62,999 bases of DNA from Pseudomonadales bacterium (GCA_035500235.1 DATJXK010000177.1:1-62999), one strand, 5' to 3'; numbered from the stretch's first letter, positions 3,573 through 62,999 are shown. Translations and numbers: made by a program. Notes: generated from the sequence alone by a model not told the origin.

Positions 3573-5219
3573 TTATAGTGACCTGACACGGTAGAAACGG
3601 GCCGGATAGTTGGTCCACTGGTAATCAATGAAATGAAATGTTCCGTTGACAATACCGCCATTGGTAATCGCGTTCGTCTCCAGCGAAATCCAGTCTGGAT
3701 AAATCAAGTCTGTCGTAGCATCGACAATAAAAGGCCAATCAGCCCCGCAAATATTAAATCCAAACTCGTTGGATTTGAAACCGAAGTTTGGGTCGACCTG
3801 GATCTGCGCGTTCCAAGGCGGAAGCGGAAGAGGCGTAAAAGAAATATAGTCCGGATTAACCCCTCCATTGCCTCCTGAAAAGATGACAATGTTTGTTGGC
3901 CCGGGCCCGAGAGGAATTGTGAGTGTCGAATCTCCGGCAAATGAGCTCCATCCGCCGGTATTGAGGGTATTAATATACGAATAATCCTGGCCATTCACGG
4001 TGATTCGCAATTTGGTGCCATCGCCCTGGGTGGCAAAATGAACATCCATTGAATTCAATCCGCCGTGGGGGCCGCCGTCGACAGTGTTCAATTCAAAAAA
4101 AGTATTGGTAGTTAGATGCATATTCTGCACGCACCAACCATCCCACGCGGCGCCATCCCGGGTGAAAATTGAGCCGTTGCCAACCGTGCCATTGGTGACG
4201 GCGTAAATAGTAGTGTTGGTTGTGGGCGACGGCACCGGGCCATTGGCCGGCGGCCCATTTGTGGTCTGGACGACAGTCAGGATATTGCCGTTGCTGTCGA
4301 AGTTAAGCAGGTCAACGCAAATAGAACGCAAGCAACCGTTATCGGAAATGGCCTGGTTGTGATAGAACTGATACCATTGGCCGTGGAATTCCACAGCCGA
4401 GCCCTGGCTGGTGCTGCACCCGGTGGAAGACAGATAGACGCCTTTCGATGTCCACGGCCCCATCACATTGGTAGAGACGGCATATTCCAGTTGATTGAAG
4501 TTGGGGCTATTATCGGCGTAAGTGAGATAGTATAAATTGTTTCGCTTGAATACCCACGTACCTTCGTGGAAATCATTGAGGTTCGTGACAGCCTGGGGCG
4601 TTCCACTGATCGAAATCATATCCGGGTTCAGTTTGGCAACGGTGCAATTCCCGCCGCCGCCATAAAACAAATATGCCTGGCCATCGGTATCGACAAACAC
4701 ATCGGGATCAATCATCGAAAAACCGCCCTCGCCCTGGATATAATTCGTGAGCGGCGTGAAATCCCGGCCGGGGCTTAGACTGGTGGCGACGCCGATTCTC
4801 CAGGTGTTGTTCCAATTGGCATCGCTGGGATCGCTGGGATGCGGAAAATAGAAATAATATTTTCCGTTGGCATAGGCGCAATCCGGCGCCCACATAAACC
4901 CGCCGGGCGGGCCGCTCCAAGCCACCTGACTGGAGCGTAAAATCTCTCCCTCGTCACGCCAGTGAACCATGTCCGCCGTGGAAAAGACATGATAACGGTC
5001 CATCAAATTGCAGCCTTGCGGCGGGTCAATGTCGCGCGATGGATAAACATATAACCGTCCATCCGACCACACATGCGCGGCAGGGTCCGCGGTATAAATG
5101 CTGGTAATAAATGGGTTGCCGCCAAAACAGGTCATCGCCGTGGACGTTATCACAACCGATATGAGCAAAAGAGAGAGAGACTTTAACCTGGAACGATGAG
5201 TGTGGTGACTATTTAACAT
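3573..5219 (-). CDS. GH43 glycoside hydrolase (xylosidase/arabinofuranosidase type) with CBM6-like module and C-terminal FYRV domain
   Basis: 548 aa with a signal peptide. GH43 propeller motifs: YTADPAAHVWSDGRLYVYPS, MWAPDCAY, IDPDVFVDTDGQAYLFYGG and HEGTWVFK. Sugar-binding-like module: LRITVNGQDYSY..GGWSSF. The last 82 aa (3573-3821) end in ARFYRVRSL. Confidence 0.85.
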   Translation of the reverse strand: MLNSHHTHRSRLKSLSLLLISVVITSTAMTCFGGNPFITSIYTADPAAHVWSDGRLYVYPSRDIDPPQGCNLMDRYHVFSTADMVHWRDEGEILRSSQVAWSGPPGGFMWAPDCAYANGKYYFYFPHPSDPSDANWNNTWRIGVATSLSPGRDFTPLTNYIQGEGGFSMIDPDVFVDTDGQAYLFYGGGGNCTVAKLNPDMISISGTPQAVTNLNDFHEGTWVFKRNNLYYLTYADNSPNFNQLEYAVSTNVMGPWTSKGVYLSSTGCSTSQGSAVEFHGQWYQFYHNQAISDNGCLRSICVDLLNFDSNGNILTVVQTTNGPPANGPVPSPTTNTTIYAVTNGTVGNGSIFTRDGAAWDGWCVQNMHLTTNTFFELNTVDGGPHGGLNSMDVHFATQGDGTKLRITVNGQDYSYINTLNTGGWSSFAGDSTLTIPLGPGPTNIVIFSGGNGGVNPDYISFTPLPLPPWNAQIQVDPNFGFKSNEFGFNICGADWPFIVDATTDLIYPDWISLETNAITNGGIVNGTFHFIDYQWTNYPARFYRVRSL

Positions 5220-5324
5220 ACGCTTGGTAGCTACAGGGATAAATGAGGTGGTGGCGTGATCGCGTGGCGGAATGTGGACAATTATTAATCGTAAAAGTTT
5301 AATTGGTTATCACCGTTAGCGGTA

Positions 5325-5340
5325 TCCCCGAAAACGGGGA
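5325..5340. promoter_or_regulatory. ATCCCC-loop-GGGGAT hairpin, copy B (TCCCCG AAAA CGGGGA)
   Basis: 6-bp stem in the divergent region between the GH43 start (5219, 105 nt away) and the GH3 start (5392, 51 nt away). Confidence 0.55.
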
Positions 5341-5391: not shown

Positions 5392-8073
5392 ATGAACCCA
5401 CCCAATAGCGAATTAAACCGGAGGAAATTCATTTCGACCCTGACTACAGCCACGGGCTTTCTGGCGTTTGGCCTGGGTTCGGCTACTTCTATCACACTGG
5501 CGGACGAGAACGGAATACGTGCGACGGGCAAGAGAATCGGAATATCCAATGAAGCGTTCAAAAAGGCACGGCAACGCGCCGAGAAACTGGCCGGGCAAAT
5601 GACGCTGGACGAAAAAATCAGCCAACTGGGGGCACAGGCTCCCGCCATCGACCGATTAAATGTGCCGGGATATAATTACTATACTGGCGAAGCGCTACAC
5701 GGTTTGCTGCGGAGCGCACCGGTGACTTCTTTTCCCGTACCGCTGGCATTGGCAGCATCGTGGAATCCTGAACTTTTTCTCAAGGTTTATACGGTCGTCT
5801 CGGACGAAGCGCGGGCTTACGACAACCGCGACAAGAACGGGTTAAGCTATTATTCGCCGATAACACTCAACCTGCATCGCGACCCGCGCTGGGGACGTTG
5901 TTGCGAAGCGCCGGGAGAAGATCCCTGCCTGGCAGCAACCGTTGGGGTGCAGGTGATACGCGGCATGCAGGGCGATAATCCAGATTACCTTAAGACCACG
6001 GCCTGCTCGAAACATTTTGTCTGTAATAACACGGACAACGACCGTACGTCGGTTTCCGCGCCGGTGGATCCCCGCAGTTTTTGGGAATACTATACCCGCG
6101 CCGAGTGCGCCATGGTATTGGAAGCAGACGTGTTTTCGGTGATGGGCGCTTACAACGCGATGAATGGGATTCCCTGTTGTGCCAATCCTTTTTTGCTGAC
6201 GGACCTTTTGCGAAGCCGCTGGGGATTTCGCGGCTACGTGACGTCTGATTGCGATGCCATAGACAATATCTATGACCCGCATCATTATGCCGCGAGCCTG
6301 CCGATCGCATCGGCCATGGCCGTCGAGGCCGGCTGCGATTTAAATTGCGGCGGGACATTGCAAGCGAACCTGAAGGAAGCGGTGGACCAGGAATTAATCG
6401 GCGAGGAAGAGATCACGACGTCCGTGGTTCGGCTTATGACGGTACGTTATTTAATGGGACTCTTTGATGCTCCGGCCAAAGTTCCGTACACCCAGATTCC
6501 CTTCGCAGTGGTGGATTCGGAAGCGCATCGCGCGCTGGCGCTGGAAGCGTCCCGGCAATCGCTGGTGCTACTGAAAAACGAGTCGCAATTTTTGCCGTTG
6601 GACAAGACAGTTATAAAGAAAATTGCCGTTGTTGGCCCGCTGGCCGGGCTTTGCCAACTGGGCGGATACAGCGGTGCGCCGATCGTGCGCGTATCTCCTT
6701 ATGAAGGGATTGCCAATCATCTGGGCGTCGAGGTGTTTAGCCCGAATGTTTCGGCGGCGAAAAAAGTCGCCACAAGCGATAACATCCGCCTGGAATCTTC
6801 CTCAGAAGGGGAATCGAACCTGGGTTTCATCGAGAACAATGCGTGGGCGGAATTTCCGAAAATGAATTTCAACGGCAAGACCGCGTTCGAAGCGCGGGTG
6901 TCGAGCTACTCGAACGGCGGGCGTATTGAAGTCCACCTAGACTCGTTGGATGGACCGCTGGCCTGCACCCTGACTGTGCCGCATACGGGCGAATGGCAGA
7001 ACTGGACGAACGTCACTGCGCCGCTTGAGAATATCAGCGGCGAGCATTCTGTTTTTATGCGGTTTCTCGGAGGTGATGGATGGCTTTTGAACGTGGAACG
7101 GTTCCAACTCAATCCCGTTGTTCAGCCGGCGCCGCAACCGGGCCGCCCGCAGGTTATCTTCGCGCAAGGATGTTCTGCGACGGGGAAAAAGGACGATAAA
7201 ATGTTCCAGGAAGCCGTGGATGCGGCGCGGGGCGCGGATGTGGTCGTGCTGGTTTGTGGCGTCACTGAAGACGTGGATCGCGAAGGAGTTGATCGTGAGA
7301 AGCTTGGGTTGTCCGGCGTGCAGCCGGAACTGGTCCAGGCGGTTTATGCCGCCAATCCAAAGACTATTTTGGTCGTCTCCAGCAATAATACCGTGGCCAT
7401 CGAATGGGAGCAGCAAAACCTGCCGGCGATCCTGTGCGCCATTTGCGCCGGACAATCGCAAGGCACAGCAATCGCTGAAGTTCTGTTTGGGGATTACAAC
7501 CCGGGCGGTAAATTGCCGTGCACCTGGTATCGTTCGGAAGAACAGTTGCCCCCTGATCACGATTACGACATCCATAAGGGACGAACCTACATGTATTTTG
7601 GCGGCGACCCGCTGTATCCCTTTGGTCATGGCCTCAGCTATACGACGTTCGCTTTGAGCCAGCTTCAGTTGGATGGCGCGACGCTTGAGCCGGATGGCAA
7701 GGTCAATGTCTCGGCGACTGTCGCCAATACGGGAAACCGCGCGGGGGCTGAAGTGGTCCAGCTTTACATCACGCCACCGGCATCGCCGGTGAAACGGCCC
7801 ATCAAACAACTGGTTGGTTTTCAGCGGGTGGAATTGCAGCCGGGTGAACAAAAGAAGATCACCTTTGAAGTGCCGTTTACCGAGCCGGCGTTTTGGTACT
7901 GGGATGATGGCGCCCGGAAATTTGCCTGTCAGCCGGGCGTGGCCAAAGTGCTGATTGGCAATTCGTCCGCTAATATTTCGTTGAACGGGGAACTTACGTT
8001 ACAGGCAGCGGAGGCAGCGCCGTCGGGGCCGGAAATGCTCCAGACGGTGGCGGTGAAATCGAGTGTCGCCTAA
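5392..8073 (+). CDS. GH3 beta-glucosidase/beta-xylosidase with twin-arginine signal and an inserted CBM6-like module
   Basis: 893 aa. Tat motif NRRKFISTL. GH3 motifs KHFVCNN and GYVTSDCDAI (nucleophile Asp). Insertion at about 6784-7146: RIEVHLDSLDGPLACTLTVPHTGEWQNWTNV..FMRFLGG. Fn3-like tail: VQLYITPP..VGFQRVEL. Confidence 0.9.
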   Translation: MNPPNSELNRRKFISTLTTATGFLAFGLGSATSITLADENGIRATGKRIGISNEAFKKARQRAEKLAGQMTLDEKISQLGAQAPAIDRLNVPGYNYYTGEALHGLLRSAPVTSFPVPLALAASWNPELFLKVYTVVSDEARAYDNRDKNGLSYYSPITLNLHRDPRWGRCCEAPGEDPCLAATVGVQVIRGMQGDNPDYLKTTACSKHFVCNNTDNDRTSVSAPVDPRSFWEYYTRAECAMVLEADVFSVMGAYNAMNGIPCCANPFLLTDLLRSRWGFRGYVTSDCDAIDNIYDPHHYAASLPIASAMAVEAGCDLNCGGTLQANLKEAVDQELIGEEEITTSVVRLMTVRYLMGLFDAPAKVPYTQIPFAVVDSEAHRALALEASRQSLVLLKNESQFLPLDKTVIKKIAVVGPLAGLCQLGGYSGAPIVRVSPYEGIANHLGVEVFSPNVSAAKKVATSDNIRLESSSEGESNLGFIENNAWAEFPKMNFNGKTAFEARVSSYSNGGRIEVHLDSLDGPLACTLTVPHTGEWQNWTNVTAPLENISGEHSVFMRFLGGDGWLLNVERFQLNPVVQPAPQPGRPQVIFAQGCSATGKKDDKMFQEAVDAARGADVVVLVCGVTEDVDREGVDREKLGLSGVQPELVQAVYAANPKTILVVSSNNTVAIEWEQQNLPAILCAICAGQSQGTAIAEVLFGDYNPGGKLPCTWYRSEEQLPPDHDYDIHKGRTYMYFGGDPLYPFGHGLSYTTFALSQLQLDGATLEPDGKVNVSATVANTGNRAGAEVVQLYITPPASPVKRPIKQLVGFQRVELQPGEQKKITFEVPFTEPAFWYWDDGARKFACQPGVAKVLIGNSSANISLNGELTLQAAEAAPSGPEMLQTVAVKSSVA

Positions 8074-9075: not shown

Positions 9076-10011
9076 TCATTTGTTGTAATACGTGGCGTGG
9101 GAAAAGAGCCACGCACTGTCGGAACCGGCATTGCCATTGATCTTTAAATACGAATTGTGCCAGGGGTGAAGCGACACGTGGCCGTCGGCAAAGGCGAAGG
9201 ACGTGGCAGCACCATGATTGGCCGCCGGCCGGTCCCCAATGGTTTGTCCCTGGCCATTTGGCCCGGGGGTACCGGAAAGTCCGAAGACGAGAAAGAAGCC
9301 GTCGTTCAAGCTCAGCGGATTTTCGTCCAAAAAGGTGAAACAATCCGAAGCACTTAAGCCTCCCCGGAAATCACTGTATTTTCTGAAGATGGCAAACGCG
9401 CCACTGCCGACTTCAGACGCATAATCCTTCGATTCAAAAAGTGTCGTGCCGCAGTAACCATTTTCGGAACAGGAACGGACGCGATGCTGATGCGAAACAG
9501 GGTCGATACCCAAAACATCCGCAGGGCAGACATAACTGCCGGGGGTTTTCATATAAGGCCCGATCGAGCCATTGATGGTTTTGCCGGAGACCGGATCCAC
9601 CGGCGGCCCAATGCCCAGAAGCGCAAGGTTGGTAGAAGCCCCAGCGGGGTCGTCTGTGGGACTGGATGATCCGTTTATAGTTCCCATGTAACCAGCCACC
9701 CAGTTCGGATCACTTCTGCCTAAGCCGATGGGATCAGGGCTGGGATAAACGATGCCACCGGACAGGAGACCTTTATGGCCTTCATTTCCAGGCAGTGCGT
9801 CACTGTTATCGCCCGCATAAATGATACTGGCGGTCTGCAATTGCTTCATGTTGTTGAGGCAATAGGTCGCTTTGGCGCGTTGCATGGCCTGCTGCAGGAC
9901 CGGCAAAAGGATCGCGGCCAGAATGGCGATAATGGCAATGACAACCAGCAATTCAATCAGAGTGAATGCGCCCCTGCGAACCCGGCGATGACTGACAAAT
10001 AATAACTTCAT
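9076..10011 (-). CDS. Prepilin-type N-terminal cleavage/methylation protein of the H-X9-DG (DUF1559-like) family, pseudopilin 1
   Basis: ATG at 10011 gives [47 protein letters not shown]. The track start at 10017 is GTG. The C-terminus has [15 protein letters not shown], which is H-X9-DG. It lies 27 nt downstream of a 15-bp hairpin that follows the giant lectin gene. Confidence 0.9.
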
Positions 10012-10038
10012 AATCACTGACTACTATTTTCTAACGAG

Positions 10039-10090: not shown

Positions 10091-13000
10091 TTATTGGTGA
10101 ATCTGCACCAGATAGAAGCGATGGTTTACAGAGAGCGGATCGCTCACGGTCTGCACAGTATTATTACCGCTGATGGACGCGCCCAAAGGTGTCCACGCCG
10201 GATCCATCAGGTTATTTTTGTATTCGACCTGATAGGTCCATCCGGTCTGAGCAAAGAATGACAAGTGAAAGCTGCCGCCGCTAACACTCGTGGTGACATA
10301 GGGAGAGGGCGACGTGGGGGTCAAGAGGAGGAAGTTGACGTTCACTTCCTGTTCGCCGTTGACCGTGGTGCCTTGCAATTGCAGCGTCTGTTGATTGCCA
10401 GTCAGCGTGACTTTGGCAGGATTGCCATTGGCATCGTTGAGCATGACCCACTCGTAACTGGACCAACCCCCTAATGGGATGGAGAAGGTGCCCAGGGCGC
10501 GGGTGGTCTGAGACGGGGTTTGGTAACCGGCGGTCAGGATAGCGAGTCCGGCGTGAGTAGGCGCGGCGCCTTCAGCAAACCGTCCGATGACATTGTAAGT
10601 GCCCGCTGGATAATGGCGGGTATAATTGGCCCAGGAATCCTGGCCGAAGGAGCCCATGGCGTAATCGGTACCGGACGCGAATTGGGCCCTGGGCAAATCA
10701 CCCGAGGTTTGGTCGGGGAAATTGATGCCATTATTCGGGCGGTAAGCGTAAGGCCGGGAGAACGCATTGGGATCGGCTTCCAGCATATCGACGCCGGCCG
10801 TGCTTCCGAGATTGGCATAAGCATCAACCGAGTTATCGAAGAACTGGCCAGTAACTCCGCCACTGGTATAGTCGTAATCTTCGCCTTCCAACTGATAATC
10901 AGAAGCGCTGAAGGTGGCGAAGGAGTTGGTGTAAGCTGTGGTGCCCACGGAATCCGTCAGCACGACAATAGCGGTGTAGAGCTGATTCGTTGGAATTGCG
11001 CAGCTCACAGTAGAAGCAAACGCAGAGCCGCTAATGGTCAAACCGGACTGCTTCACGCCATTCAAATACAGCGAGATATTACCGGCAGTAAAGCCGACCG
11101 AAGAATTCGCCGTGAAACTCACGGTATTCGACGGCTGGAACATAGCGGTGCCATCCGGGCTGAAGTTGCTGACAAATGGCGGCGGATTATTATTCAGGTT
11201 GGCCGGCACGAGCATGTAGAAGTTCAGGTTACAACCTGCGTTGATAAACGACATTCTCAAGGTCTGCAGCACGTTGTTGGTACCGGCAAAGCGGGCGGGA
11301 TAACCGCCAGAATTCATGACCGGGCTCCAGGTGTATTTTTGCCAGTTACCCGTGGCGGGCGCGTTAAAGGTGCCCAATTGCGACAGGGTTTGATTGGCTG
11401 ATCCGTAACCACTGGTGACCAGGCTAAAGCTGCCGGCATTGGCCGTGGCATTACCGTTACCATTCGCGGACCGGACATAGATATTATATACTCCGGCGGG
11501 ATAATGCCGGGTGTAATTTCCCCATTGGCCACCCGAGGTAAAGCCAATGTCGAAGTCGATAAACGGAAGGTCGTCAATGGGATTGGTGGTATTGAGGTAA
11601 GACAGGCGAGGAATATCGCCATTGGGTTCAGTATTGAGGTTGGCGTCATCGCCGACAGTTCCACGGCTGTAGGAATTATGGCCCGGCCCACCCTGGCAGT
11701 ATGAATCGATATTTTCCACTCCGTTGTAGCCAAAATAAGCATTGGTTTGCGGATTATCGAAATAGCCACCGCCATTGTAGTCCCAATCTTCGGCTTCCCA
11801 TGTGTAATAGTTGGGATTAATGGTATCAAACGAAAGGGTGGCTGTGCTGCCATTGTTGGCACCGTCCGTGATAAGGAAGGTGAGCGAATAAACGGCATCT
11901 GTGGTCAACAGGAAGCTGACGCTTTTGTTGGTTGAATTTCCGGTGACAGTCAACCCGCTGGAGGGGGTGAGCGTTTGAGAGAAAGCGCCTCCCGTAAGGC
12001 TGTTTCCCTGGACTTCGACAACGATGTTGTTAACGCCGTTGCTGGAGATAACAGAACAATTAAAGGTGTTCGTTTGCTGGAATTGATAGGTACCATCGGG
12101 GAATTCGTTAGTTACGTAACCCGCACCGACCGGGGGAATATTGGTATTGAGCGGGAGCAACATGAAGAAGTTTTCATTACAATTTCCGCCATCAATGGTC
12201 ATGCGCAAGGTTGACGCGGTACCATCATTGGGAACGGTCAGCACCGCGGGACTGCCGGTGCTATCCACAAGAGAGTACCAACCGTAAGTCTGCCAGCCGG
12301 TCGATTTGACGGAATAGTAGTAAGGCCCCGAGTTGGCAAACGAAGCGGTACCAGCGACGACGGAGATATCACCGGCGTTGCTTTGGGGGCCGTTGCCGTC
12401 AGCGGCGCGCACGAATACGTTGTACTGCCCGGGAGGATAGTGGCGGGTATAGTTACCCCAGTTACCACCGTTATTGAAACCGAGATCGTAATCTGATTTG
12501 CCCGAACCCATGTAGGGCAAGCGCGGAACATCACCGGCGCCTTCGGTCTCCAAACCTTGAGGGCGATAGTCTGAGTTTCCTTGTCCGGGAGAAGTGTTGT
12601 TGTAATCCACTCCTGAGGTGGAGGCCTTGCCGGCGTAAGCATTGGTTTGAGGATTATCCACGAACAACCCGGCGATGCTATTGCTGGTAAAATCGAAATC
12701 TTCCGCTTCCCAGGTGTAGGCCGGCGAAATGGTGTCAAAGGAAAGGTTGTTGGTGGTGGAAGCGCTATTGATATCCGTCACGATAATCTGAGCGGCATAG
12801 AGCGTGTTGGTGATTAACGGAGCGGTAACATTTTGATTATTGGCGTTGCCGGTAATGGTCAACCCGCTGGAACTGGTCAGCGTTTGTGGAAAACCCTGCA
12901 CGCCAAACACGGTGGTGGGCGTGAGCTTTACGGAAACGTTGGCGATGCCAGCCGAGGACGCAGCGGTGAACGTCAGTGTTTTGGAATATTGGAACTGGTA

Positions 13001-13135
13001 TGAGCCGTTGGGAAATGCTCCTGAGATAGTTGGCTGAGCAATAGCACTCTGACCGAAGAAGGCCAGGGCTGCCACGAGGCCTACTGAGGATGCAAAGGAT
13101 TTCATTTGCGAAATAAATGGATGGTTCTTTTTCAT
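10091..13135 (-). CDS. Giant secreted non-catalytic protein: 3 x (Ig-like + CBM6/35-like module) + C-terminal FY.. domain
   Basis: 1014 aa with a signal peptide (SVGLVAALAFFGQSAIAQ). Three tandem ~300-aa modules lie at about nt 13033-12146, 12145-11198 and 11197-10316. Each has WEAEDFDF / WEAEDWDY / LEGEDYDY and W(G/A)NYTRHYP(P/A)G.YN(V/I). The 69-aa tail (10091-10300) ends in NHRFYLVQIHQ. Confidence 0.85.
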   Translation of the reverse strand: MKKNHPFISQMKSFASSVGLVAALAFFGQSAIAQPTISGAFPNGSYQFQYSKTLTFTAASSAGIANVSVKLTPTTVFGVQGFPQTLTSSSGLTITGNANNQNVTAPLITNTLYAAQIIVTDINSASTTNNLSFDTISPAYTWEAEDFDFTSNSIAGLFVDNPQTNAYAGKASTSGVDYNNTSPGQGNSDYRPQGLETEGAGDVPRLPYMGSGKSDYDLGFNNGGNWGNYTRHYPPGQYNVFVRAADGNGPQSNAGDISVVAGTASFANSGPYYYSVKSTGWQTYGWYSLVDSTGSPAVLTVPNDGTASTLRMTIDGGNCNENFFMLLPLNTNIPPVGAGYVTNEFPDGTYQFQQTNTFNCSVISSNGVNNIVVEVQGNSLTGGAFSQTLTPSSGLTVTGNSTNKSVSFLLTTDAVYSLTFLITDGANNGSTATLSFDTINPNYYTWEAEDWDYNGGGYFDNPQTNAYFGYNGVENIDSYCQGGPGHNSYSRGTVGDDANLNTEPNGDIPRLSYLNTTNPIDDLPFIDFDIGFTSGGQWGNYTRHYPAGVYNIYVRSANGNGNATANAGSFSLVTSGYGSANQTLSQLGTFNAPATGNWQKYTWSPVMNSGGYPARFAGTNNVLQTLRMSFINAGCNLNFYMLVPANLNNNPPPFVSNFSPDGTAMFQPSNTVSFTANSSVGFTAGNISLYLNGVKQSGLTISGSAFASTVSCAIPTNQLYTAIVVLTDSVGTTAYTNSFATFSASDYQLEGEDYDYTSGGVTGQFFDNSVDAYANLGSTAGVDMLEADPNAFSRPYAYRPNNGINFPDQTSGDLPRAQFASGTDYAMGSFGQDSWANYTRHYPAGTYNVIGRFAEGAAPTHAGLAILTAGYQTPSQTTRALGTFSIPLGGWSSYEWVMLNDANGNPAKVTLTGNQQTLQLQGTTVNGEQEVNVNFLLLTPTSPSPYVTTSVSGGSFHLSFFAQTGWTYQVEYKNNLMDPAWTPLGASISGNNTVQTVSDPLSVNHRFYLVQIHQ

Positions 13136-16535: not shown

Positions 16536-16655
16536 TCGACTATCTTCCCATGCCAAGTAAAACCTGGATTTTTGGCCCATTTAAATTTCCGCTGAAACGT
16601 TTCATGTGATTATGCCACAGGTTATTAATATACAAATAAATGATTTCTTCGGGCA

Positions 16656-16671
16656 TCCCCGAAATCGGGGA
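16656..16671. promoter_or_regulatory. ATCCCC-loop-GGGGAT hairpin, copy D (TCCCCG AAAT CGGGGA)
   Basis: 6-bp stem, 10 nt after the GH3 stop (16682) and 120 nt upstream of the beta-helix glycosidase ATG (16535). Confidence 0.55.
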
Positions 16672-16681
16672 GCCGTGAAAT

Positions 16682-31995: not shown

Positions 31996-32026
31996 CTTTG
32001 CTGGTATCTCAAATATCTTTGGTTTC

Positions 32027-55200: not shown

Positions 55201-56549
55201 AAGGGGATTAAGCCGATGTTCTGGCTTTGGCTATTTCCAAAGTTGAAAATTTGACCCCAGGTATTCCCGTTATTTTGCAGGGTCCAGCATTCGATAGTGA
55301 GCGACGTGGTATTAGTCAGGATTCCCGCCGGCAATGTCACGTAACCGGAGTGACCGGGGCCTCCACCACCGGGCAATACCAGGCCATTGGCAATAGTCGC
55401 ATTAGTGCCTCCGTTGGGCGCCACTAAGGTGCCATTCGCGCCTCCGACGGAATCGGAAGCATCACTAACAAAACTGTAGCGGTGTACCAGTGTTGGGGGG
55501 GCTGTAACGAATACAGTAGAACTGGTTGCGGTAACACCATGCACGGTAGCTCGAACGGTGGCAGTACCAAGACCAACGGCCGTGATCACGCCACTGCTGT
55601 TGACCTGGACAACGCCAGGGTTGCTGCTGACCCAATTGGTGGCCTCGATGTTGGCGTTAAAAATATTCGTGGTTGTCGCCGCGAGAGTAACGTCAACTGT
55701 GCCCTGGGCAGAACCCGAAAGCACCAAATTGGTGGAATCAAATGCGAGGACGGCAGAAGAGGGAGTAAAGTTGGAAACAACATTTGTAGAACCGGCTACG
55801 TCATCAACGGCGATCTGGAATGAATCGAGAGTTCCGTTGTAGATGCGGAATTCATAAATAGTACCCTGCCATTGCGGATCCGGCCAGGGATCCTGCCCGA
55901 TAAAACAGGTAGAAAAATTCTGAACCCCGGGCGTATAGGCGCTGCTGGGAACGGTGGCGCTGGCAATCACACTCTGCCCCTCCCAAATCGTGTCCACTAA
56001 ATTGGTAGAATTATACGTTACCGTAAAGTGAGTTTCGGTCCCGGGCATACCGATGCCGCTCTGAGAATCCGTTTCATTGTTATTCAACCTCAAAGCCTGT
56101 TCGAGATTGTTATTATTATTTTGACCGTCGGAAATAAATGCCCAATAGCTGGGTGTGCCACTATTGAAACTCCAGGTTTCGGCCCAGGTATTGGCGGCGC
56201 TTTGAGACGCCCAGAATTCTACCGTAACATTGGTGGTGGTGTTTAGAATCCCACCGGGCAGCGTGACGAAACCGGAGAAACCGGGACCGCCGCCACCGGC
56301 CAAGGTCAGGCCGTTACTGAACTTGACCGCAGTTCCGCCGCTGGGCGCCACCACTGAGCCATTGGCTGTACCCACCGAATCGGAAGCATCACTGACGAAG
56401 CTATACCGGTGTTGAAGGGTTTGCGCAGAAAGCACGGAAGGCATCGCCAATAACGACAAGCCTAACATTGCTTTGGCCGCCGAGTGAATAAGTCCACGGC
56501 GGGTAAAGATTGCGCTGTTAATTGGGTTCATAACGATGGGAGTTTTCAT
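52212..56549 (-). CDS. Giant secreted LamG/Big_2/Ig-repeat protein (4 LamG, 3 Big_2, 2 Ig-like) with C-terminal FFKL domain
   Basis: 1445 aa with a signal peptide. LamG modules open with HRYSFVSDASDSVG at aa 47, 356 and 752. A fourth LamG starts at about aa 1150 (YWPLQETDGTTAYDVVG). Big_2 modules: NWVSSNP.V..V.SSG.IT.V..GTATV.AT. Ig-like modules: Y.W.F.G..I..A....L....V....G.Y. The 59-aa tail (52212-52391) ends in AAFFKLLVSP. Confidence 0.85.
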   Translation of the reverse strand: MKTPIVMNPINSAIFTRRGLIHSAAKAMLGLSLLAMPSVLSAQTLQHRYSFVSDASDSVGTANGSVVAPSGGTAVKFSNGLTLAGGGGPGFSGFVTLPGGILNTTTNVTVEFWASQSAANTWAETWSFNSGTPSYWAFISDGQNNNNNLEQALRLNNNETDSQSGIGMPGTETHFTVTYNSTNLVDTIWEGQSVIASATVPSSAYTPGVQNFSTCFIGQDPWPDPQWQGTIYEFRIYNGTLDSFQIAVDDVAGSTNVVSNFTPSSAVLAFDSTNLVLSGSAQGTVDVTLAATTTNIFNANIEATNWVSSNPGVVQVNSSGVITAVGLGTATVRATVHGVTATSSTVFVTAPPTLVHRYSFVSDASDSVGGANGTLVAPNGGTNATIANGLVLPGGGGPGHSGYVTLPAGILTNTTSLTIECWTLQNNGNTWGQIFNFGNSQSQNIGLIPLPGRDNGNLEFAVSPNGGEIDTVSGIHFPTNSEQYVSFVFDSSALKSALYDNGKLLATQSFPNRTYIPGSFGGAAGTANNVFGQDPFPDNQYQGTVYEFRIWNGALSAVYEAAAAAAGPSVIITNTVPTLLNIGLTTTSMIGSGTQQATVTANFIQVSSVDVTGGATNWVSSNPNVLTVSSSGLITGVNGGTATVSATVSGVTATSATITVASTPPVFTLKPANVTAAVNDNNVTFSTMGLGGNLNYQWSFDGNPISGATNTTLVLNNVALTNSGTYSVLISNNLGTTNASATLNVAQAVLLHRYSFVSDASDSVGHANGTIIGPNGGTAASINNGLTLPGGGGGGFSGYVAFPTGILTNTTSLTVECWVTQNTAQEWATVWDFANDGNHNFEMCPFPQRGILNLDVAITPHGNEIDTITGNLFPSGQKVYTAFTFNVGNLTANIYTNGNVSGTQVYPDATYIPGTIGAPAGTSQNWLGNDTYGDTQFQGTIYEFRIWDGAQSPLYLEISAAAGAGVVVTNLTPTSISVSVTNNTMVQGLSQPASATGNFADASGVNITGSVTNWTSSNTNILKVSSSGLVTAVGTGSATISATLNGTTGASSTISVPTSPPIITQQPAASDTFLQGATLTATVANVGTSPFVYRWFFNNGTTPISTSSNPTLMIPNVQPTSAGTYTVLVSNLDGSVLSSQLVVSVIAATTYEQAVLQYGPIAYWPLQETDGTTAYDVVGADNGTYTTTSITGSSFSLGNPGPSQSFFGGSSLSAGFLSAIVDIPEGNLNITGPVTITAWVQQETAAQFGGVVGHGDQSWRLAITQNGAPGDGLAAGNSGSSQADATAPTSANINDDNWHMLVYTYTGNTSQPNNGLLYVDGALVASNTIATPPPGDNLDVWIGGAPDYGTQRLLPAANIAHVAIFNQSFTGAQVQGLYNGTYVLGPQLIQIAKASGNNIVLNWQTGTLLQSTNILGPWTTNSTATSPYTIPATNKAAFFKLLVSP

Positions 56550-56668
56550 TCAATTTGATGGCAGCGTTTCGAATTCAAACAGTCAGGGTCCAAACGGGCA
56601 GATTCTACGTGCATATTGCATCGCTGAAATGATGGACATGATTTGACTATAGGCCTCAGTCGAAAAAG

Positions 56669-56694
56669 TGTCATGTGGCATGAAGTGGCCACAA
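56669..56694. promoter_or_regulatory. Conserved 26-nt box, copy 2 (TGTCATGTGGCATGAAGTGGCCACAA)
   Basis: Matches 49421-49446 at 25 of 26 positions. It lies 119 nt from the LamG giant ATG (56549), upstream of or within the 5' end of the DUF1680-LamG gene. Confidence 0.5.
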
Positions 56695-56810
56695 GGCATA
56701 AACCAAAGTTATGTTATTATCTTCAACGAGTTAATTTCACCTTGAAAGATACCGCTGATATGCCGGATCGATTCTTTAGCACTTATAGAAACAATCTTAC
56801 TCTCTCTAAG

Positions 56811-59800
56811 ATGTTGCTCCGCCGGACGTTGCTTCCGGCTGGTTTTAAAATAGGGAAAGGAAAGTTGTGCTCTATACCTTCTGCGACAGTCAGGAGGAGG
56901 AACGTTAGGCTGTTGAGAGAATTAATTTTTTTACCACTTATAGGATTTTTTCTTTTTAACTGCCACGCCGATACGGTGACTGATTTAACGAATATCCAGG
57001 CCGGGGCATATGGAGGACTTTATGTGGGGAACCGCGCGCCATTGGCGCCCAGTCCGTTGCTGCGCCTGCCACCGGGGAGTATTCAACCGCAAGGCTGGTT
57101 ATATACGATGCTGGAAAACCAGAGAAACGGATTGAATGGATTACAGGAGGAGATTTCGCCATTTCTTCAATTCCCAACCAGTGACTGGACGACGCCGAAC
57201 GGCTCAGGCTCAACACAGGGCTGGGAGCGCGTGCCTTATTGGCTGCGCGGTTACATTGACATGGGCTACAGCCTGCAGGATGCCATGGTAATCAGTAATG
57301 CCACGCGATGGATCCAGGGAGTGATGGTTTCAGAACGGACGAATGGGTATTTCGGTCCGGCGCAGGATTATGGAGATTCGAGTACAACCTCTGACCTGGG
57401 AATGAATGCACCGGACCTATGGCCCAATATGCCCATGCTCGATGCATTGCGCTCTTACTATGAGTACACCAGCGATACGAACGCCCTCAATTTGGTTGAA
57501 AATTATTGCAGGTGGGAAAATACGCTTCCCTCCTCGGATTTTAACAATGGCTATTGGCCGATGATGCGGATGGGAGACAATATCGAATCAGTCTATTGGC
57601 TCTACAACCGGATCGGACAATCCTGGCTATTGAATTTGGCGACCAATATGTATGCGAATATGGCGCGGTGGGATTCTCCAGGCACATTGCCGAACTGGCA
57701 TAATGTGAATATCGCGGAAGGGTTTCGCGCGCCGACGGTTTTTTGGCAACAATCCGGTAATCCGGCGCACTTGCAGTTTGCCGAGGCGAATTATCAAACG
57801 GTCATGAGCCAATACGGCCAGGTGCCGGGCGGGGGCTTTGGTGGTGATGAAATTTGCCGCACTTATTATTACGGACCGCAGCAGGGATTCGAGACCTGCG
57901 GCATCGTGGAGTTTATGCGGAGCTTTGAAATTCTCACGCGCATCACCGGCAATCCGGTGTGGGCCGAACGATGCGAAGACCTGGCAGCCAACACTCTGCC
58001 GGCGGCAATGCGCACGAATATGATGTCGCTCCACTATTTGACCGCGCCGAACCAGCCTGAATTGGATGACGAAGCGAAGGCGCCGGATATCAATAACGGA
58101 GGAGGACCGTGGTTTTCGCAAAGTCCGTCTGAGCCTAATTACTGGTGCTGCGAACATAATCATGGAATGGGCTGGCCGTATTTTTGCGAAGAAACGTGGC
58201 TGGCAACGTGGGACAACGGCCTGTGTGCTTCGCTGTATGCGCCAACGACAGTTACGGCGCGTGTTGGCGACGGCAGCACTGTGAGTGTGGCGGAGACTAC
58301 CACTTACCCTTTCAGTGGAACGGTGCAGTTGGATGTGACAGCAACGAACAGTGTCAATTTTCCCCTCTATGTGCGCGTGCCGCAATGGTGCTCAAATAAT
58401 TGGATCCAGGTTAACGGCCAGACAGTCGCGACCAACAGCCGGACAAGTTCTTATGTTTGTATTCAGCGCACGTGGACAAACGGCGACCAGGTGGTACTAA
58501 ATTTCACGCGCCAGATTACGCTGCGAACTTGGGCGACGAATAACAATTGCGTCTCGGTCAACTATGGCCCGCTAACGTTTTCACTACAAATCCCGGAAAA
58601 CTGGCAACCCTACGGCAATAATGGAGTGCCCTGGACAGAATATCAGATTTATCCGGGGGCGAACTGGAATTACGGCCTCGAGATAAATGCGACCAATCCC
58701 GCGGCATCGTTTACCGTCGTGACGAATCCCGGACCGCTGGCCGCCAATCCGTTTTCATTACAGACCACACCAATAGAATTGCAGGTACAAGCGCGACAAA
58801 TTCCAGCCTGGACACTCGATAATTTGTATGACGCGGGGACGGTTTGGCCCAGCCCGATTTATAGCACGCAGCCGGTACAGACGGTTACGCTGGTGCCGAT
58901 GGGCGCGGCGCGCTTGCGCATTTCCGCTTTTCCTACTGTTACCACAAACTCCGCCGCGACGCATTGGGGCGCACCTTATGCGCCAAGTGCTTCATACGTC
59001 AATTCCTCTGATACAGTTTCAGCGATGAATTTTGGTTTAAATCCGACCAACTCCAGCGAACAAATGACGCGCATGACATGGTGGAATCACGAAGGGACGA
59101 CGGAGTGGGTACAAGCGTCGTTCAATGGTTTGAGCCAGGTTAGCCAGATGTCTGTCTATTGGTATGATGACGTGCCCACTGGCGGCGGTTGCAATCTACC
59201 GCAGTCATGGTGGGTGGAATATCTGGCAGGTACAAATTGGGTGACAGCCACCGGCGCCAGCAGTTATGGCGTGGCGGCAAACACATTCAACACGGTGACG
59301 TTTGATCCAGTCACGACGACAGCGGTGCGCTTATATGTTCAACTACAGAAGGGATATTCCGGCGGCATTCTGGCATGGCAGGTTCCGGCGAATCCGGTAA
59401 CGTCGCTGGCGCTGCGTTATTCGTTGCACGGCAATCTGGCCGACACGGCCTCCGGCCAAACGGGCAACCTCTACGGCGGAACGTTTGTGCCCGACCGCTT
59501 TGGTAAGGCTGGTAATGCATTGCAATTTAATGGGACCAGCACAAATTACGCGACCATACCGCGTCCTAACTGGATGGATTGGAGTATTGCCTTTTGGGTC
59601 AAGACAACGGCAACCGGCGGGAGTTCTTCACCGTCAGGATACAGCAGTGCGGGCAAATTTGGCGGGTCATTGTATCTCGACGGCAATACAACCCTAAAGC
59701 CGTTGTCAGGTTTTCCTGTCGGCGTGCCAACGGGAAGCAATGCCTACAGTATTGCGGTATGGGAAAAGGCTGACGCCGGTTGCCCAAATAACGGCGGCTT

Positions 59801-61157
59801 TGTCGGCTGGGGCAATGAGGGCACCAGTGAAGCCAATAACCTCCGGCTAAACGGCGCCAACAGCGTAAATAATTATTGGTGGGCCAATGATTTTGTCGTA
59901 AGCGGGCTTACGGTTAATCCGATGGATGGCAACTGGCACTCTATCGTGGCCACCTGGAATGGCACGACCAGGACCATTTATGTGGATGGTGCTGTTGGCG
60001 GGTCGCAGACTCCGGGAGCGCCGAATGTGATGGGTTTAAATTTTGTCGTCGGCGCCACCATCGGCGACGCGAACTTCAAAGGATGGATGGAAAACCTGCT
60101 GATCACGACCAATGCCCTGACGCCATCGCAAGTTTCGACTTACCAAAACAACGGGCCGATGCCCGCAGGCTCAGTGGCTTACTGGCAATTTAATAATGCA
60201 ACTAACCTGGGCGCTGACAGCAGCGGCCAGGGAAACACCTTGGCTATTGGCAACCTGAGCGGTCAATGGTACCAGGGTGAGGGTTTAGTGGATGGCGATG
60301 TTTCCGGAACGGCGGATGATTTTGGCGTTTCACTGTTAGGCAATCAGGCTGCTTTTGGCGTGGGAAATCCTGATACGACCATTACATCAACATCGGCGAT
60401 TAATGACGGGCAATGGCATCACATCACAGCGACGCGCAGCGCATATACCGGCCAAATGCAACTCTATGTGGATGGCACGCTACAGGCAACTGCCGTCGGC
60501 CCGTATGGACCAAAAATCGCATCCCCGTCGCTTTGCCTCGGCGCTATCAATTCGGGCGGAGGGTACTTCAACGGCGCGATTAGTGATGTGCAAATTTTTA
60601 ACCGCGTTTTAAGTGCACCGGAGATTTCCGTCGTGATGAACCAGGCGCTCGTGCTGAATGCTTTGGGCGTCACTAATCTTATAGCCGGGCAAACCTTGAC
60701 GTTTTCGAATTCCGCGGCGGATCCTTATGCACCGCCCAGGACGATCGGCTGGAGCGTGGGAGGCGTTCCCGCGGGCATCACCATCAATCCAGTTACCGGG
60801 GTGCTGACGTGGCGGCCTACTATCGCGCAATCGCCAGCCACCTATTCATTTTTTATAACGGCGACTGACAATGGCTCTCCCGCGCTTAGCGCCGTCCAAT
60901 ATCCCTTGGTGACCGTGCTCACTCCTTCAGAGCCTCAAATTCTATTCCCGGACTTTGCGGGTGGATTTTTTACGTTCAGTATTAATGGAAATCCCGGGCC
61001 TGATTATTATATTGATTCGACAACGAACCTTGGCCCAACGGCAGTGTGGCTGCCATTATTCACGAATAGTGCCCCTGCTTCGCTTCCGTTTGTTTGGACT
61101 GATTTAATTAACCCCAACATCCCCCGGCAATTTTATCGTGTCCGTCTTGGCCCTTAA
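56811..61157 (+). CDS. DUF1680 (GH127/146-like) enzyme fused to a discoidin-like domain, LamG domains, a cadherin-like Ig domain and a C-terminal FYRV domain
   Basis: The end at 61157 is firm, but the start is ambiguous. Candidates are TTG 56643 (track), ATG 56673, ATG 56760, ATG 56811 and TTG 56913. The last is preceded by AGGAGGAGG at 56892-56900. Signal peptide LLRELIFLPLIGFFLFNCHA. DUF1680 motifs: WERVPYWLRGY and YWCCEHNHGMGWPYF. LamG segments: WSIAFWVKT, WHSIVATWNG..IYVDG and WHHITATR..LYVDG. Ig-like domain: GITINPVTGVLTWRP. The tail (60936-61157) ends in RQFYRVRLGP. Confidence 0.8.
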   Translation: MLLRRTLLPAGFKIGKGKLCSIPSATVRRRNVRLLRELIFLPLIGFFLFNCHADTVTDLTNIQAGAYGGLYVGNRAPLAPSPLLRLPPGSIQPQGWLYTMLENQRNGLNGLQEEISPFLQFPTSDWTTPNGSGSTQGWERVPYWLRGYIDMGYSLQDAMVISNATRWIQGVMVSERTNGYFGPAQDYGDSSTTSDLGMNAPDLWPNMPMLDALRSYYEYTSDTNALNLVENYCRWENTLPSSDFNNGYWPMMRMGDNIESVYWLYNRIGQSWLLNLATNMYANMARWDSPGTLPNWHNVNIAEGFRAPTVFWQQSGNPAHLQFAEANYQTVMSQYGQVPGGGFGGDEICRTYYYGPQQGFETCGIVEFMRSFEILTRITGNPVWAERCEDLAANTLPAAMRTNMMSLHYLTAPNQPELDDEAKAPDINNGGGPWFSQSPSEPNYWCCEHNHGMGWPYFCEETWLATWDNGLCASLYAPTTVTARVGDGSTVSVAETTTYPFSGTVQLDVTATNSVNFPLYVRVPQWCSNNWIQVNGQTVATNSRTSSYVCIQRTWTNGDQVVLNFTRQITLRTWATNNNCVSVNYGPLTFSLQIPENWQPYGNNGVPWTEYQIYPGANWNYGLEINATNPAASFTVVTNPGPLAANPFSLQTTPIELQVQARQIPAWTLDNLYDAGTVWPSPIYSTQPVQTVTLVPMGAARLRISAFPTVTTNSAATHWGAPYAPSASYVNSSDTVSAMNFGLNPTNSSEQMTRMTWWNHEGTTEWVQASFNGLSQVSQMSVYWYDDVPTGGGCNLPQSWWVEYLAGTNWVTATGASSYGVAANTFNTVTFDPVTTTAVRLYVQLQKGYSGGILAWQVPANPVTSLALRYSLHGNLADTASGQTGNLYGGTFVPDRFGKAGNALQFNGTSTNYATIPRPNWMDWSIAFWVKTTATGGSSSPSGYSSAGKFGGSLYLDGNTTLKPLSGFPVGVPTGSNAYSIAVWEKADAGCPNNGGFVGWGNEGTSEANNLRLNGANSVNNYWWANDFVVSGLTVNPMDGNWHSIVATWNGTTRTIYVDGAVGGSQTPGAPNVMGLNFVVGATIGDANFKGWMENLLITTNALTPSQVSTYQNNGPMPAGSVAYWQFNNATNLGADSSGQGNTLAIGNLSGQWYQGEGLVDGDVSGTADDFGVSLLGNQAAFGVGNPDTTITSTSAINDGQWHHITATRSAYTGQMQLYVDGTLQATAVGPYGPKIASPSLCLGAINSGGGYFNGAISDVQIFNRVLSAPEISVVMNQALVLNALGVTNLIAGQTLTFSNSAADPYAPPRTIGWSVGGVPAGITINPVTGVLTWRPTIAQSPATYSFFITATDNGSPALSAVQYPLVTVLTPSEPQILFPDFAGGFFTFSINGNPGPDYYIDSTTNLGPTAVWLPLFTNSAPASLPFVWTDLINPNIPRQFYRVRLGP

Positions 61158-61176
61158 ACACGGCGGCCATCACTTC

Positions 61177-62999
61177 TTACGGATTGACCAGAACCTTGAA
61201 GAACTGCACCGCATTGGTCGCGGGAACGGTATAAGGTGAAACCGCCAGTGTATTTGTCGTCCATGGTCCGGTGACAGTCGGGGCTTGCAGTAAAACTCCC
61301 GCAGGCCAGGTCAATAGGATGTTTGCCCCGGCATGTTGGGCATTCAAATTTACCACGCCCGCGTAAATGCCCGAATAAAGATCCTGCACCTGTGCCGCCG
61401 TCAAAGCCTGCGAATAAACGGCGGCGTGGGCAATCCTGGCATTGATTAACCGCGCTGTTCCATAATCGGGTGAGCCGCCAATCCAGGCATCAAGATTATT
61501 ACCCGAAGGAATTGCGGTTATAGTGTTATTGGCCACGAGCACACCATCCAGGTAAAGGGAACCGTTATTTGGCTGGCTCACTACTCCCGTGTAAGTATAA
61601 GCAAGCATGTGCCAACTGCCGTTATTCATTCCCACGGCGCTGGTCGCGTCCACGGGCACGTTACCATCATTGGCTCCCGGCTCGCCACTGGGATTGATGC
61701 TCATGCGCCACGAATAATCTCCCCGGCCAAATACTCCCGCAAAATTAGGAATCGATACAGCATTCACCCATGCCACAATGGTGATTGCGCCAGTGATATT
61801 GAACGGTCCTTGAGGAATATCCACGTAACCGGAGGATCCATCCAATAACACGGAACGGCTCATCGCGCCGAAAATGGAATTGGTCGACCCGGCCTGGGCC
61901 AAGGTATAGCCACCCACATACGTACCATCATTACCGCCAACGATGTCATGCGCTGTAGTTCCACTGGTCTCATTCAACGGCCAATAAGCCATGGGGTTTA
62001 ACGAAAGCAGTGACTGTTGGTAGGTATTGGGAAGAATTATCATCAGATTTAGCGCCGAACTCACTGCTGACCCGTACTGGTTGCTAACGGTGCAAGTATA
62101 GCTGCCGGCCTGCGCAGTTTGCAGGTTGGTAACGATTAGAGTTGGCGACGCTGAAGTGCTAATAGGATTGGCCCCGCTGTTGAAATACCATCGGTAGACA
62201 AAAGGCGGGGTACCAATATTAGCCACATTGGCGGTCAACGTCGCTCCTGCCAGCAACGTTTCTGAAGCTTGCGGTTCTTGCGTAATGGTTGGCCCGCTCG
62301 CCGTCACAGTGATGGCAGCGCTGGTTCCCGTTACACCGTTCAGTGTTGCGCTCACCGTGGCGCTGCCCGTGTTAACCACTGTCACAGAGCCAAAATTATT
62401 CACGGTGAGAATATTTGGATTGCTGCTGGTCCAATTGGTGACGAAGCCGGTGACCGTTACACCTGAAACATTCTGAAATGCTCCCGTCACTGCCACTGGT
62501 TCGCTGAGGCCGGCGGGCATCGAATAATTCGTCACTGTCACCGTCAATGACACTGGCGTTAAATTCGTTTCCACGTAAGCGGGCCCAGCCGCCGCGCTGA
62601 CCGCGAGATACAAAGGTGAAACCACGCCGTTCCATATCCGAAGCTCATAAAGCGTCCCAGAAAACTGGTCATCACCGTACACATCATTTCCCAGCATATT
62701 CTCGGTCGTTCCGCCAGCGCCCCCGATCAAGCCCGGAGTATAACTTGCGCCCGGGAACACTTGTGAAGCCACCAGGTTTCCGTTCAGATAGAGATTACCC
62801 GTCAAATTTCCGTAGTTAAATGTCGTGCAAACATATTGCTCGGAATTATTCGGGAACAAAACGGATGATTGCAGGTCCACCTCACCGCCGTTTGGTGTAA
62901 ACGCCACCTCCATATTGTTATTATTATTCACCGGATACGGTATCAGCGCAAAATTTTGACTGCCGCTGCTGCCAAAATCCCAAATCTCCGCCCAGTTAT
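61177..62999 (-). CDS. LamG/Big_2/Ig-repeat protein, paralogue of 52212-56549, 5' end beyond the window
   Basis: The track starts it at an internal Met (62931). The frame stays open to 62999 (..NWAEIWDFGSSGSQNFALIPYPVNNNNNMEVAFTPNGGEVD). This aligns with EWATVWDFANDGNHNFEMCPFP..LDVAITPHGNEID of the paralogue. By eye, more than half of the residues are identical over the aligned C-terminal ~600 aa. The tail (61177-61353) ends in VQFFKVLVNP. Confidence 0.85.
   Translation of the reverse strand, partial: NWAEIWDFGSSGSQNFALIPYPVNNNNNMEVAFTPNGGEVDLQSSVLFPNNSEQYVCTTFNYGNLTGNLYLNGNLVASQVFPGASYTPGLIGGAGGTTENMLGNDVYGDDQFSGTLYELRIWNGVVSPLYLAVSAAAGPAYVETNLTPVSLTVTVTNYSMPAGLSEPVAVTGAFQNVSGVTVTGFVTNWTSSNPNILTVNNFGSVTVVNTGSATVSATLNGVTGTSAAITVTASGPTITQEPQASETLLAGATLTANVANIGTPPFVYRWYFNSGANPISTSASPTLIVTNLQTAQAGSYTCTVSNQYGSAVSSALNLMIILPNTYQQSLLSLNPMAYWPLNETSGTTAHDIVGGNDGTYVGGYTLAQAGSTNSIFGAMSRSVLLDGSSGYVDIPQGPFNITGAITIVAWVNAVSIPNFAGVFGRGDYSWRMSINPSGEPGANDGNVPVDATSAVGMNNGSWHMLAYTYTGVVSQPNNGSLYLDGVLVANNTITAIPSGNNLDAWIGGSPDYGTARLINARIAHAAVYSQALTAAQVQDLYSGIYAGVVNLNAQHAGANILLTWPAGVLLQAPTVTGPWTTNTLAVSPYTVPATNAVQFFKVLVNP

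Follow-up and report, generated by a model that had tools for sequence, protein, structure and literature searches.

A predicted Fn3-like domain shared by the C-termini of exported enzymes and lectins encoded on a 63-kb bacterial DNA stretch

We analysed a DNA stretch of 62,999 nucleotides (nt) filed under a Pseudomonadales bacterium (GCA_035500235.1 DATJXK010000177.1:1-62999), called the window below, always meant at its full length and taken here to come from soil Verrucomicrobia, and found that six exported sugar-degrading or sugar-binding proteins encoded there share one homologous C-terminal domain of 57–72 amino acids (aa), here called the tail. An earlier note, made from the sequence alone, had proposed such a tail on six unrelated secreted proteins and took it for a sorting or anchoring tag. 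Our results uphold the shared domain, point to a compact beta-sandwich of the fibronectin type III (Fn3) class as its predicted fold, and place it last in most of its carriers, with a free end that mostly closes on Pro or Gln and may serve localisation.

The shared domain in the window

Translating each proposed tail interval on the correct strand reproduced the endings of all six tails, and pairwise BLAST sorted them into three subtypes, a, b and c. To avoid circularity, hidden Markov models (HMMs) of the subtypes were built solely from homologues outside the window and run against its six-frame translation. Subtype a, about 70 aa long, comprises the tails of lectin 1 (10094–10306, minus strand, ending HRFYLVQIHQ; subtype-a HMM E 6.8e-18) and lectin 2 (32081–32293, minus, HRFYLLSVQ; E 4.5e-18), which are 49% identical. 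Subtype c, about 68 aa, comprises those of a glycoside hydrolase family 43 (GH43) protein (3576–3785, minus, ARFYRVRSL; subtype-c HMM E 2.7e-19, the match spanning HMM positions 3–67 of 68 up to the last residues of the reading frame) and of a GH127-LamG-He_PIG protein (60954–61154, plus, RQFYRVRLGP; E 3.8e-25), with a BLAST E of 3e-6 between the two. Subtype b, at about 57 aa some 15 residues shorter, comprises the 53% identical tails of two LamG proteins, a LamG/Ig giant (52215–52385, minus, AAFFKLLVSP; subtype-b HMM E 7e-30) and a partial LamG/Ig protein (61180–61350, minus, with VQFFKVLVNP as its last residues; E 2e-28).

The subtypes are tied together by cross-detection: the subtype-a HMM finds the GH127 tail (E 2.5e-5), and the subtype-c HMM finds the tails of lectin 1 (E 1.1e-4) and lectin 2 (E 3e-3). 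Profile–profile comparison with hhalign gave 98% probability and E 2e-14 for a against c, and 88% and E 3.5e-6 for b against a. Beyond the six tails, no further copy was seen in the six-frame translation, where nothing else scored below E 0.05. One reading frame with a similar ending (30016–30270, minus, SFFYRLTLTNQ), overlapping the 3’ end of a GH16 gene, matched no tail HMM, and its motif was therefore judged to be due to chance. The pattern written in the earlier note fits four of the six tails fully; subtype b, to judge from its sequence a shortened relative, lacks the ‘G..Y.V.Y’ element.

Could the likeness of the tails themselves be chance, or the composition of beta-rich C-termini? Some BLAST scores between subtypes are weak, with no match at all between the GH43 and partial LamG tails, and hhalign gave only 54% probability for b against c. 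At the same time, independent HMMs cross-detect the subtypes and match nothing else in the window, the a–c profile alignment is strong, thousands of database homologues have the same architecture, and a mixed alignment yields one confident common fold. For subtypes a and c chance resemblance is thus refuted, for b it is unlikely, and as an account of the whole set we consider it extremely improbable.

The carriers are a GH43 enzyme (3573–5219, minus; Pfam Glyco_hydro_43, E 7e-38) with a signal peptide seen on reading its leader; lectin 1 (10091–13135, minus), whose translation shows a signal peptide and three Ig-like plus carbohydrate-binding module (CBM)-like repeats (WEAEDFDF...); lectin 2 (32078–36094, minus), with an N-terminal LamG domain (Pfam Laminin_G_3); the giant (52212–56549, minus), with four LamG domains, Big_2 and Ig (Pfam); the GH127 (formerly DUF1680) protein with LamG and He_PIG domains (56643–61157, identified by Pfam and translation, start codon uncertain), the only carrier on the plus strand, the other five being on the minus strand; and the partial LamG/Ig protein (61177–62997, minus; Pfam), its N-terminus cut by the window edge. 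Lectin 1 has no sequence match in Pfam, NCBIfam or PDB but has 109 relatives in metagenome-assembled genomes (MAGs) of Verrucomicrobiia. All five complete carriers begin with signal-peptide-like leaders. The six are not all unrelated, as had been claimed: with tails removed, paralogy remains evident between the two lectins (E 1e-79) and between the two LamG proteins (54% identity), so that the window holds four independent carrier families rather than six.

In the GH127 protein a He_PIG Ig-like domain (Pfam) precedes the tail. The same two-domain C-terminal cassette, a He_PIG-like Ig domain followed by a subtype-c tail, occurs at 60630–61154 (plus) in the window and at 15636–17972 (plus) in the related locus L042, in the latter on another large secreted enzyme otherwise unrelated to GH127.

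The tail is predicted to be a compact Fn3-like module

Profile searches and modelling both indicate that the tail is a divergent, compact Fn3-type beta-sandwich with predicted strands A-B-C-C’-E-F. An alignment of 86 diverse tail copies (A3) was used for a profile search of PDB sequences and for an AlphaFold2 model of the lectin 1 tail. The profile matched the Clostridium thermocellum Fn3-like protein 3mpc (E 1.5e-5), the Fn3 region of 5g56 (E 1.2e-3) and the consensus design FN3con (E 1.9e-3). In these alignments the ‘...D......RFYRV’ of the tails falls on the Fn3 ‘...TD.....YYYxV’ E–F segment, which makes the [FY][FY][RK][VL] motif the likely counterpart of the Fn3 F strand. All alignments to Fn3 chains end at the F strand, leaving 14–28 target residues, corresponding to the FG loop and G strand, unmatched.

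Structure prediction, one of the checks proposed in the earlier note, gave a confident model of the lectin 1 tail (predicted local-distance difference test score, pLDDT, 96; predicted template-modelling score, pTM, 0.81), with strands at residues 4–9, 12–19, 24–30, 50–57 and 64–70 of 71, plus two short bridges. The model ends on the motif strand (F-like, 64–70). The best Foldseek matches in PDB were Fn3- or Ig-type domains (Tencon, IL-17RA, IFN-gamma receptor, integrin beta4 and EMMPRIN), with probability about 1.0 and template-modelling (TM) scores of 0.5–0.6, although the E-values were weak (0.02–0.2), and no type IX secretion system (T9SS) C-terminal domain (CTD) was among the top 50. This model replaced an earlier one of the GH43 tail from a shallow mixed alignment, which was all-beta (pLDDT 77) and for which Foldseek was uninformative.

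The seventh strand (G) of the Fn3 fold appears to be missing in the model. In tandem arrays of the domain the repeat period can be 71–72 aa, with Gly/Pro-rich linkers, which leaves no room for a G strand; its predicted absence would therefore belong to the family as a whole and would not depend on being terminal.

Existing models do not recognise the domain. The fn3 model PF00041 matched neither the six tails at E ≤ 10 nor the 86 copies at E ≤ 0.1, and no other Pfam or NCBIfam model covers it, whether searched with the six tails (E ≤ 10), the full proteins or the 86 copies (E ≤ 0.1); proteins with arrays gave scattered weak matches to Tissue_fac and fn3_SORL1. In the literature we found no description of this domain, nor of relevant Verrucomicrobia sorting signals or DUF1559 contexts.

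The domain is abundant and mostly the last in its protein

An exhaustive HMMER search of 1.84 billion cluster representatives with a tail profile (A2) gave matches to 19,140 representatives at E ≤ 1e-3 and to 870 at E ≤ 1e-10; because A2 took in about 40 positions from the LamG domain lying ahead of subtype b, the larger total may include some LamG-only matches. The named members looked up were all Verrucomicrobiota, except for one fragment labelled Haliangiales, the taxonomic range resting on few named cluster members and on MAG titles. In Verrucomicrobiia of soil and peat the family has undergone great expansion.

Copies were mapped in 145 newly retrieved proteins among the best 150 of the 19,140 matches. 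A C-terminal copy, ending within 12 residues of the terminus, was present in 138 of these 145 (95%), and of the other seven at least two nevertheless have the motif at their end. Carriers in the database include proteins with MBG, BspA-type leucine-rich repeat (LRR), PKD, Ig, fn3, LamG and proprotein-convertase P-domains. One metagenome protein of 93 aa, P0032, consists of a signal peptide and a subtype-b tail and nothing else.

Because ranking at the top of such a list favours multi-copy proteins, a sample independent of copy number was also examined, namely 78 loci (1.37 Mb) retrieved with the whole of lectin 1, from Verrucomicrobiia, Limisphaerales and Pedosphaera MAGs of soil and peat, a few of them with obviously wrong bin labels; the choice of query biases these related loci towards lectin synteny. 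Here the domain occurs in 154 reading frames, as a single copy in 153, and 140 of the 154 (91%) end with it. Thirteen of the 14 non-terminal carriers are orthologues of one GH5-like enzyme. In one example (L042, 12118–14169, plus, with 12 orthologues) the tail-like domain covers residues ~233–305 of ~683, with a CBM-like part on its N-terminal side and the catalytic domain after it; its last residues are CFYRAQIS, beyond which the chain continues.

A terminal copy is found in 71 of 811 genes of the related loci (8.8%) when the lectin targets are set aside. The carriers fall into at least 22 families and are large (median 929 aa vs 390 aa for other genes), and a signal peptide was predicted in 77% of them, against 50% of other genes, by a crude predictor. 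All complete lectin orthologues have kept the tail or a tail-like ending. The earlier claim that the domain is always the last one therefore holds in the window and largely beyond it, but not for the arrays and the GH5-like enzyme; the claim that it sits on exported enzymes as well as lectins is borne out by the variety of the carriers, the export part with the reservation that the crude predictor found a leader in 77%. The earlier note had also reckoned with a generic Ig/Fn3 domain occurring internally as often as terminally; kinship with Fn3 is what the 3mpc match indicates, yet the position in the related loci is overwhelmingly terminal.

The free end of the chain is constrained

Terminal copies share more than their position. 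In 107 of 144 the chain stops 3–4 residues past the motif, and 129 of the 144 (90%) have Pro or Gln as their final residue, compared with 94 of 539 tail-less genes (17%). The preference persists when each carrier family is represented once (17 of 22), and five of the six window tails show it (chain ends at 3576, 10094, 32081, 52215, 61152–61154 and 61180). At the corresponding positions internal copies show Gly, Ser, Leu, Val or Pro and do not favour Gln or Pro. In array proteins the nearest neighbour of a terminal copy is a terminal copy elsewhere in 54 of 83 cases, where 35% of the pool is terminal, although residual homology between array proteins may contribute to this likeness. The F-strand motif is borne by internal copies too, and so the [FY][FY][RK][VL] motif is not itself a terminal signal.

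These observations suggest that selection acts on the free C-terminus, and an end of the form x-x-[PQ]-COOH fits a function tied to it. The Pro/Gln end may be a recognition element, or a cap against periplasmic C-terminal proteases. We found no known sorting signal with a Pro/Gln end, and the BamA beta-signal was ruled out by inspection, the last residue being Pro or Gln and not aromatic.

A conserved lectin–pilin gene pair

The earlier note had suggested a functional link between the tail and pseudopilin genes with which it co-occurs. The window contains three type IV pilin-like genes of the DUF1559 / H-X9-DG kind, two of them directly downstream of lectins: 9076–10017 (minus; Pfam N_methyl) follows lectin 1, and 31180–32118 (minus; Pfam N_methyl, the real start probably being the ATG at 31995) follows lectin 2. 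The N-terminal helix of the former protein matches PilA and GspG. In the related loci, a pilin-like gene lies directly downstream of 30 of 61 tail-bearing lectin homologues, of 5 of 36 other tail carriers (several of the five being short and possibly lectin fragments), and of 6 of 373 tail-less non-lectin genes. The lectin–pilin gaps range from -41 to 127 nt on the same strand, and the downstream pilins are co-orthologous with their lectins (loci L002–L079).

In the window, the four tail genes that do not encode lectins are all without a pilin-like neighbour. Since carriers other than lectins mostly lack one, the association is better described as a conserved lectin–pilin pair than as a property of the tail, and a general link between tail and pseudopilin was dropped once the lectin homologues had been separated from the other carriers; what stands of the earlier suggestion is the pairing within the lectin family. 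This pairing suggests that the lectin is displayed with, or handled by, a pilin-like protein.

Neighbouring genes in the window

The surroundings of the carriers form a dense island of carbohydrate-active enzymes (two GH43, two GH3, GH92, GH2, GH16, GH76, GH125, two GH127 and a GH95-like protein), together with genes for a glutaminase-A-like protein, an esterase, an aldose epimerase, two histidine kinases and a LuxR-type regulator. Among the glycoside hydrolase genes lies one for a protein of 724 aa with a signal peptide and no Pfam match (41030–43204, minus). At least 15 exported proteins of the window lack the tail, two of them with twin-arginine-type leaders, the GH3 enzyme at 5392–8073 (plus; RRKFIS...) and the GH125 enzyme at 38386–39801 (minus; NRRQFIQS...). 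An identical GH125 protein is encoded on the 44-kb ENA metagenome contig ERZ27256576.

What the terminal copy may do

Most likely the tail is a folded end module of large, multi-domain enzymes and lectins exported by signal peptide, and not a linear, cleavable sorting peptide. That the terminal copy serves localisation, through surface docking or export, is plausible though unproven, and we infer it with a probability of about 0.5. After export to the periplasm, the terminal copy would dock non-covalently to a partner in the cell envelope or outer membrane; such docking would either carry the protein through the outer membrane or hold it on that membrane, leaving the catalytic or lectin portion facing outward, with any extra tandem copies forming a stalk. 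We favour a role in localisation because a domain that nothing follows cannot act as a spacer, because its carriers are many and unrelated, and because the free end is constrained. Also counted in its favour is that the twin-arginine-leader enzymes and many other exported enzymes of the window lack the tail.

Several observations weigh against this. In the 145 best database proteins, 280 of 418 copies are internal, in tandem arrays of up to 10, and the 13 GH5-like orthologues use the domain as an internal linker-type module, which is ordinary Fn3 behaviour. The counts from the related loci come from syntenic regions and are not independent, reducing to about 22 carrier families. In the lectins the tail and the CBM-like module next to it evolve at similar rates (41% vs 36% identity, respectively), and the subtypes track carrier families (a on lectins, b after LamG, c after He_PIG) with no single shared consensus. 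The Pro/Gln cap could merely shield an exposed hydrophobic C-terminal strand from periplasmic C-terminal proteases. Finally, no partner or machinery was identified in the 63-kb window or in the related-MAG flanks of up to 10 kb.

Much of this would be expected of a generic structural or binding module of the Fn3 type with no part in localisation, last in the chain because C-terminal cassettes such as LamG-tail and He_PIG-tail get shuffled as units. Fn3-like modules occur in many glycoside hydrolases, where they provide stability, spacing or weak glycan or substrate contact; the tail would do the same, and its Pro/Gln end would be no more than a protease-resistant cap. Such a module would account for the likeness to Fn3 in sequence and fold, for arrays and internal copies, for subtypes inherited along with the carrier family, for the weak per-copy likeness to CBM31, F5/8-type C and Tissue_fac models, and for the lack of machinery found, and the window has other family-specific terminal beta-sandwiches whose roles are structural, such as the Fn3-like domain at the end of each of the two GH3 enzymes. 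What it explains less well is why 91–95% of carriers should end with a spacer that has no obvious use as last domain, why that domain is spread over at least 22 unrelated families and about 9% of the genes in the related loci, why the chain end is so precisely constrained, and why terminal copies form a recognisable subset. We regard a purely generic module as a serious but doubtful alternative.

A narrower version of the localisation idea, and a subset of it, is that the tail is a true outer-membrane secretion signal, either an analogue of the T9SS CTD or a recognition domain for the expanded Verrucomicrobiota type II/pseudopilin apparatus, possibly removed after transport. In its favour, the T9SS CTD too is a beta-sandwich of about 70 aa that closes a heterogeneous set of Sec-exported enzymes and adhesins at the extreme C-terminus; the free end is constrained; enzymes without the tail, including those with twin-arginine leaders, would fit a periplasmic location; P0032 recalls the small CTD-only proteins of T9SS; and the lectin family is genetically coupled to pilin-like genes. 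Yet the tail showed no similarity to PF18962/TIGR04183 at permissive thresholds and no CTD appeared among the structural matches, the domain also occurs in multi-copy arrays and internally, the pilin association vanishes for non-lectin carriers, and T9SS is not known in Verrucomicrobiota, nor was machinery identified. A dedicated secretion signal therefore strikes us as quite improbable.

Going further, the tail may be imagined as the address label of a still-unknown Verrucomicrobiota surface-localisation pathway, a functional counterpart of the Bacteroidota T9SS CTD, in which a partner in the outer membrane or of a pilin-like kind would read the exposed F-strand edge of an Fn3 fold devoid of its G strand, together with x-x-[Pro/Gln]-COOH, perhaps through strand complementation, the lectin–pseudopilin pairs being one visible case. 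This is speculation, which we think unlikely to be right in full. Were it true, about one gene in 11 in polysaccharide-utilisation islands would be marked for export or display.

Soil and peat Verrucomicrobiia are major polysaccharide degraders, which raises the question of how they get very large enzymes and lectins out of the cell. Among their exported proteins the domain singles out a large set that is easy to spot, amounting to about 9% of genes in the loci and about 19,000 database clusters, for which there is no curated model. Even on a conservative reading, defining the family would improve annotation for thousands of C-termini now called ‘hypothetical’. Should recognition lie behind the terminal bias and the Pro/Gln end, the tail would offer a sequence-based means of predicting which proteins of the phylum are extracellular or on the surface, and of tracing the machinery responsible.

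Comparison with known systems

The earlier note had held that the tail lacks the features of three known sorting signals, and both the model searches and a direct reading of the endings bear this out. The T9SS CTD of Bacteroidota resembles the tail in being a small beta-sandwich found at the very C-terminus of numerous unrelated enzymes and adhesins exported by Sec, confined to its lineage and highly abundant; unlike it, the tail also occurs in arrays of up to 10 copies and as internal single copies, and belongs to a different phylum. Por_Secre_tail (PF18962/TIGR04183) gave no match in Pfam at E ≤ 10 for the tails or E ≤ 0.1 for the 86 copies, nor in NCBIfam at E ≤ 0.1. There are no T9SS components among the Pfam-annotated genes of the window, and T9SS is not known to occur in Verrucomicrobiota.

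PEP-CTERM (TIGR02595) is likewise C-terminal on exported proteins and present in the same Verrucomicrobiia genomes, but it is a linear signal (PEP motif, transmembrane helix and basic cluster), whereas the tail is predicted to be a folded soluble domain without these. Direct reading found no such ending on the six proteins, comparison with TIGR02595 and the rest of NCBIfam gave no match on tails or copies, and a regular expression for PEP-CTERM endings hit none of 124 tail proteins against 17 of 513 others in the related loci. A typical PEP-CTERM protein, ending VPEPETIAFAGIGLALLVVNRYRPSKALRG, is encoded in the same locus as tail proteins (L042, 14683–15459, plus). An LPXTG motif followed by a hydrophobic segment and basic tail is absent from all six endings on direct reading. 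The PPC domain (PF04151) is a beta-sandwich of about 70 aa, sometimes tandem, found C-terminally on secreted enzymes of diderm bacteria, with a debated role in secretion or maturation; the tail resembles it in size, fold class, position and occasional tandem arrangement, but PF04151 matched none of the six tails or 86 copies, and tail carriers are mainly glycoside hydrolases, lectins, LamG/Ig giants and LRR proteins. As the defining features of T9SS CTD, PEP-CTERM, LPXTG and PPC were tested and not found, the tail is not a member of these families. Likeness to carbohydrate-binding modules is confined to 2 of the 86 copies, which weakly match AlcCBM31 or F5_F8_type_C (E > 0.01).

Chaperone–usher pilins have a similarly incomplete Ig-type fold, and the tail, predicted to lack its G strand, would present its F strand as an exposed edge; the analogy is structural only, as no donor strand, chaperone or usher was identified and the internal copies of arrays lack the strand as well.

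The closest relatives are the bacterial Fn3 modules (PF00041, e.g. 3MPC). With these the tail shares the B-strand Trp, the ‘G..Y.V.Y’ C strand and the ‘..D.....[FY]Y[RK]V’ E–F segment, a predicted beta-sandwich fold, with the TM scores and weak E-values given above, and an occurrence in tandem and between modules of carbohydrate-active enzymes. Since the sequence-profile search places it there and the fold comparison is consistent with this, the tail is best filed with the Fn3-like modules, as a new and so far unannotated family within a fold class already known. It differs from them in its length of 57–72 aa, in a chain or repeat that ends after the F strand with the G strand predicted missing, in scoring below detection by PF00041, in being overwhelmingly the last domain of its protein, and in its x-x-[Pro/Gln] free end.

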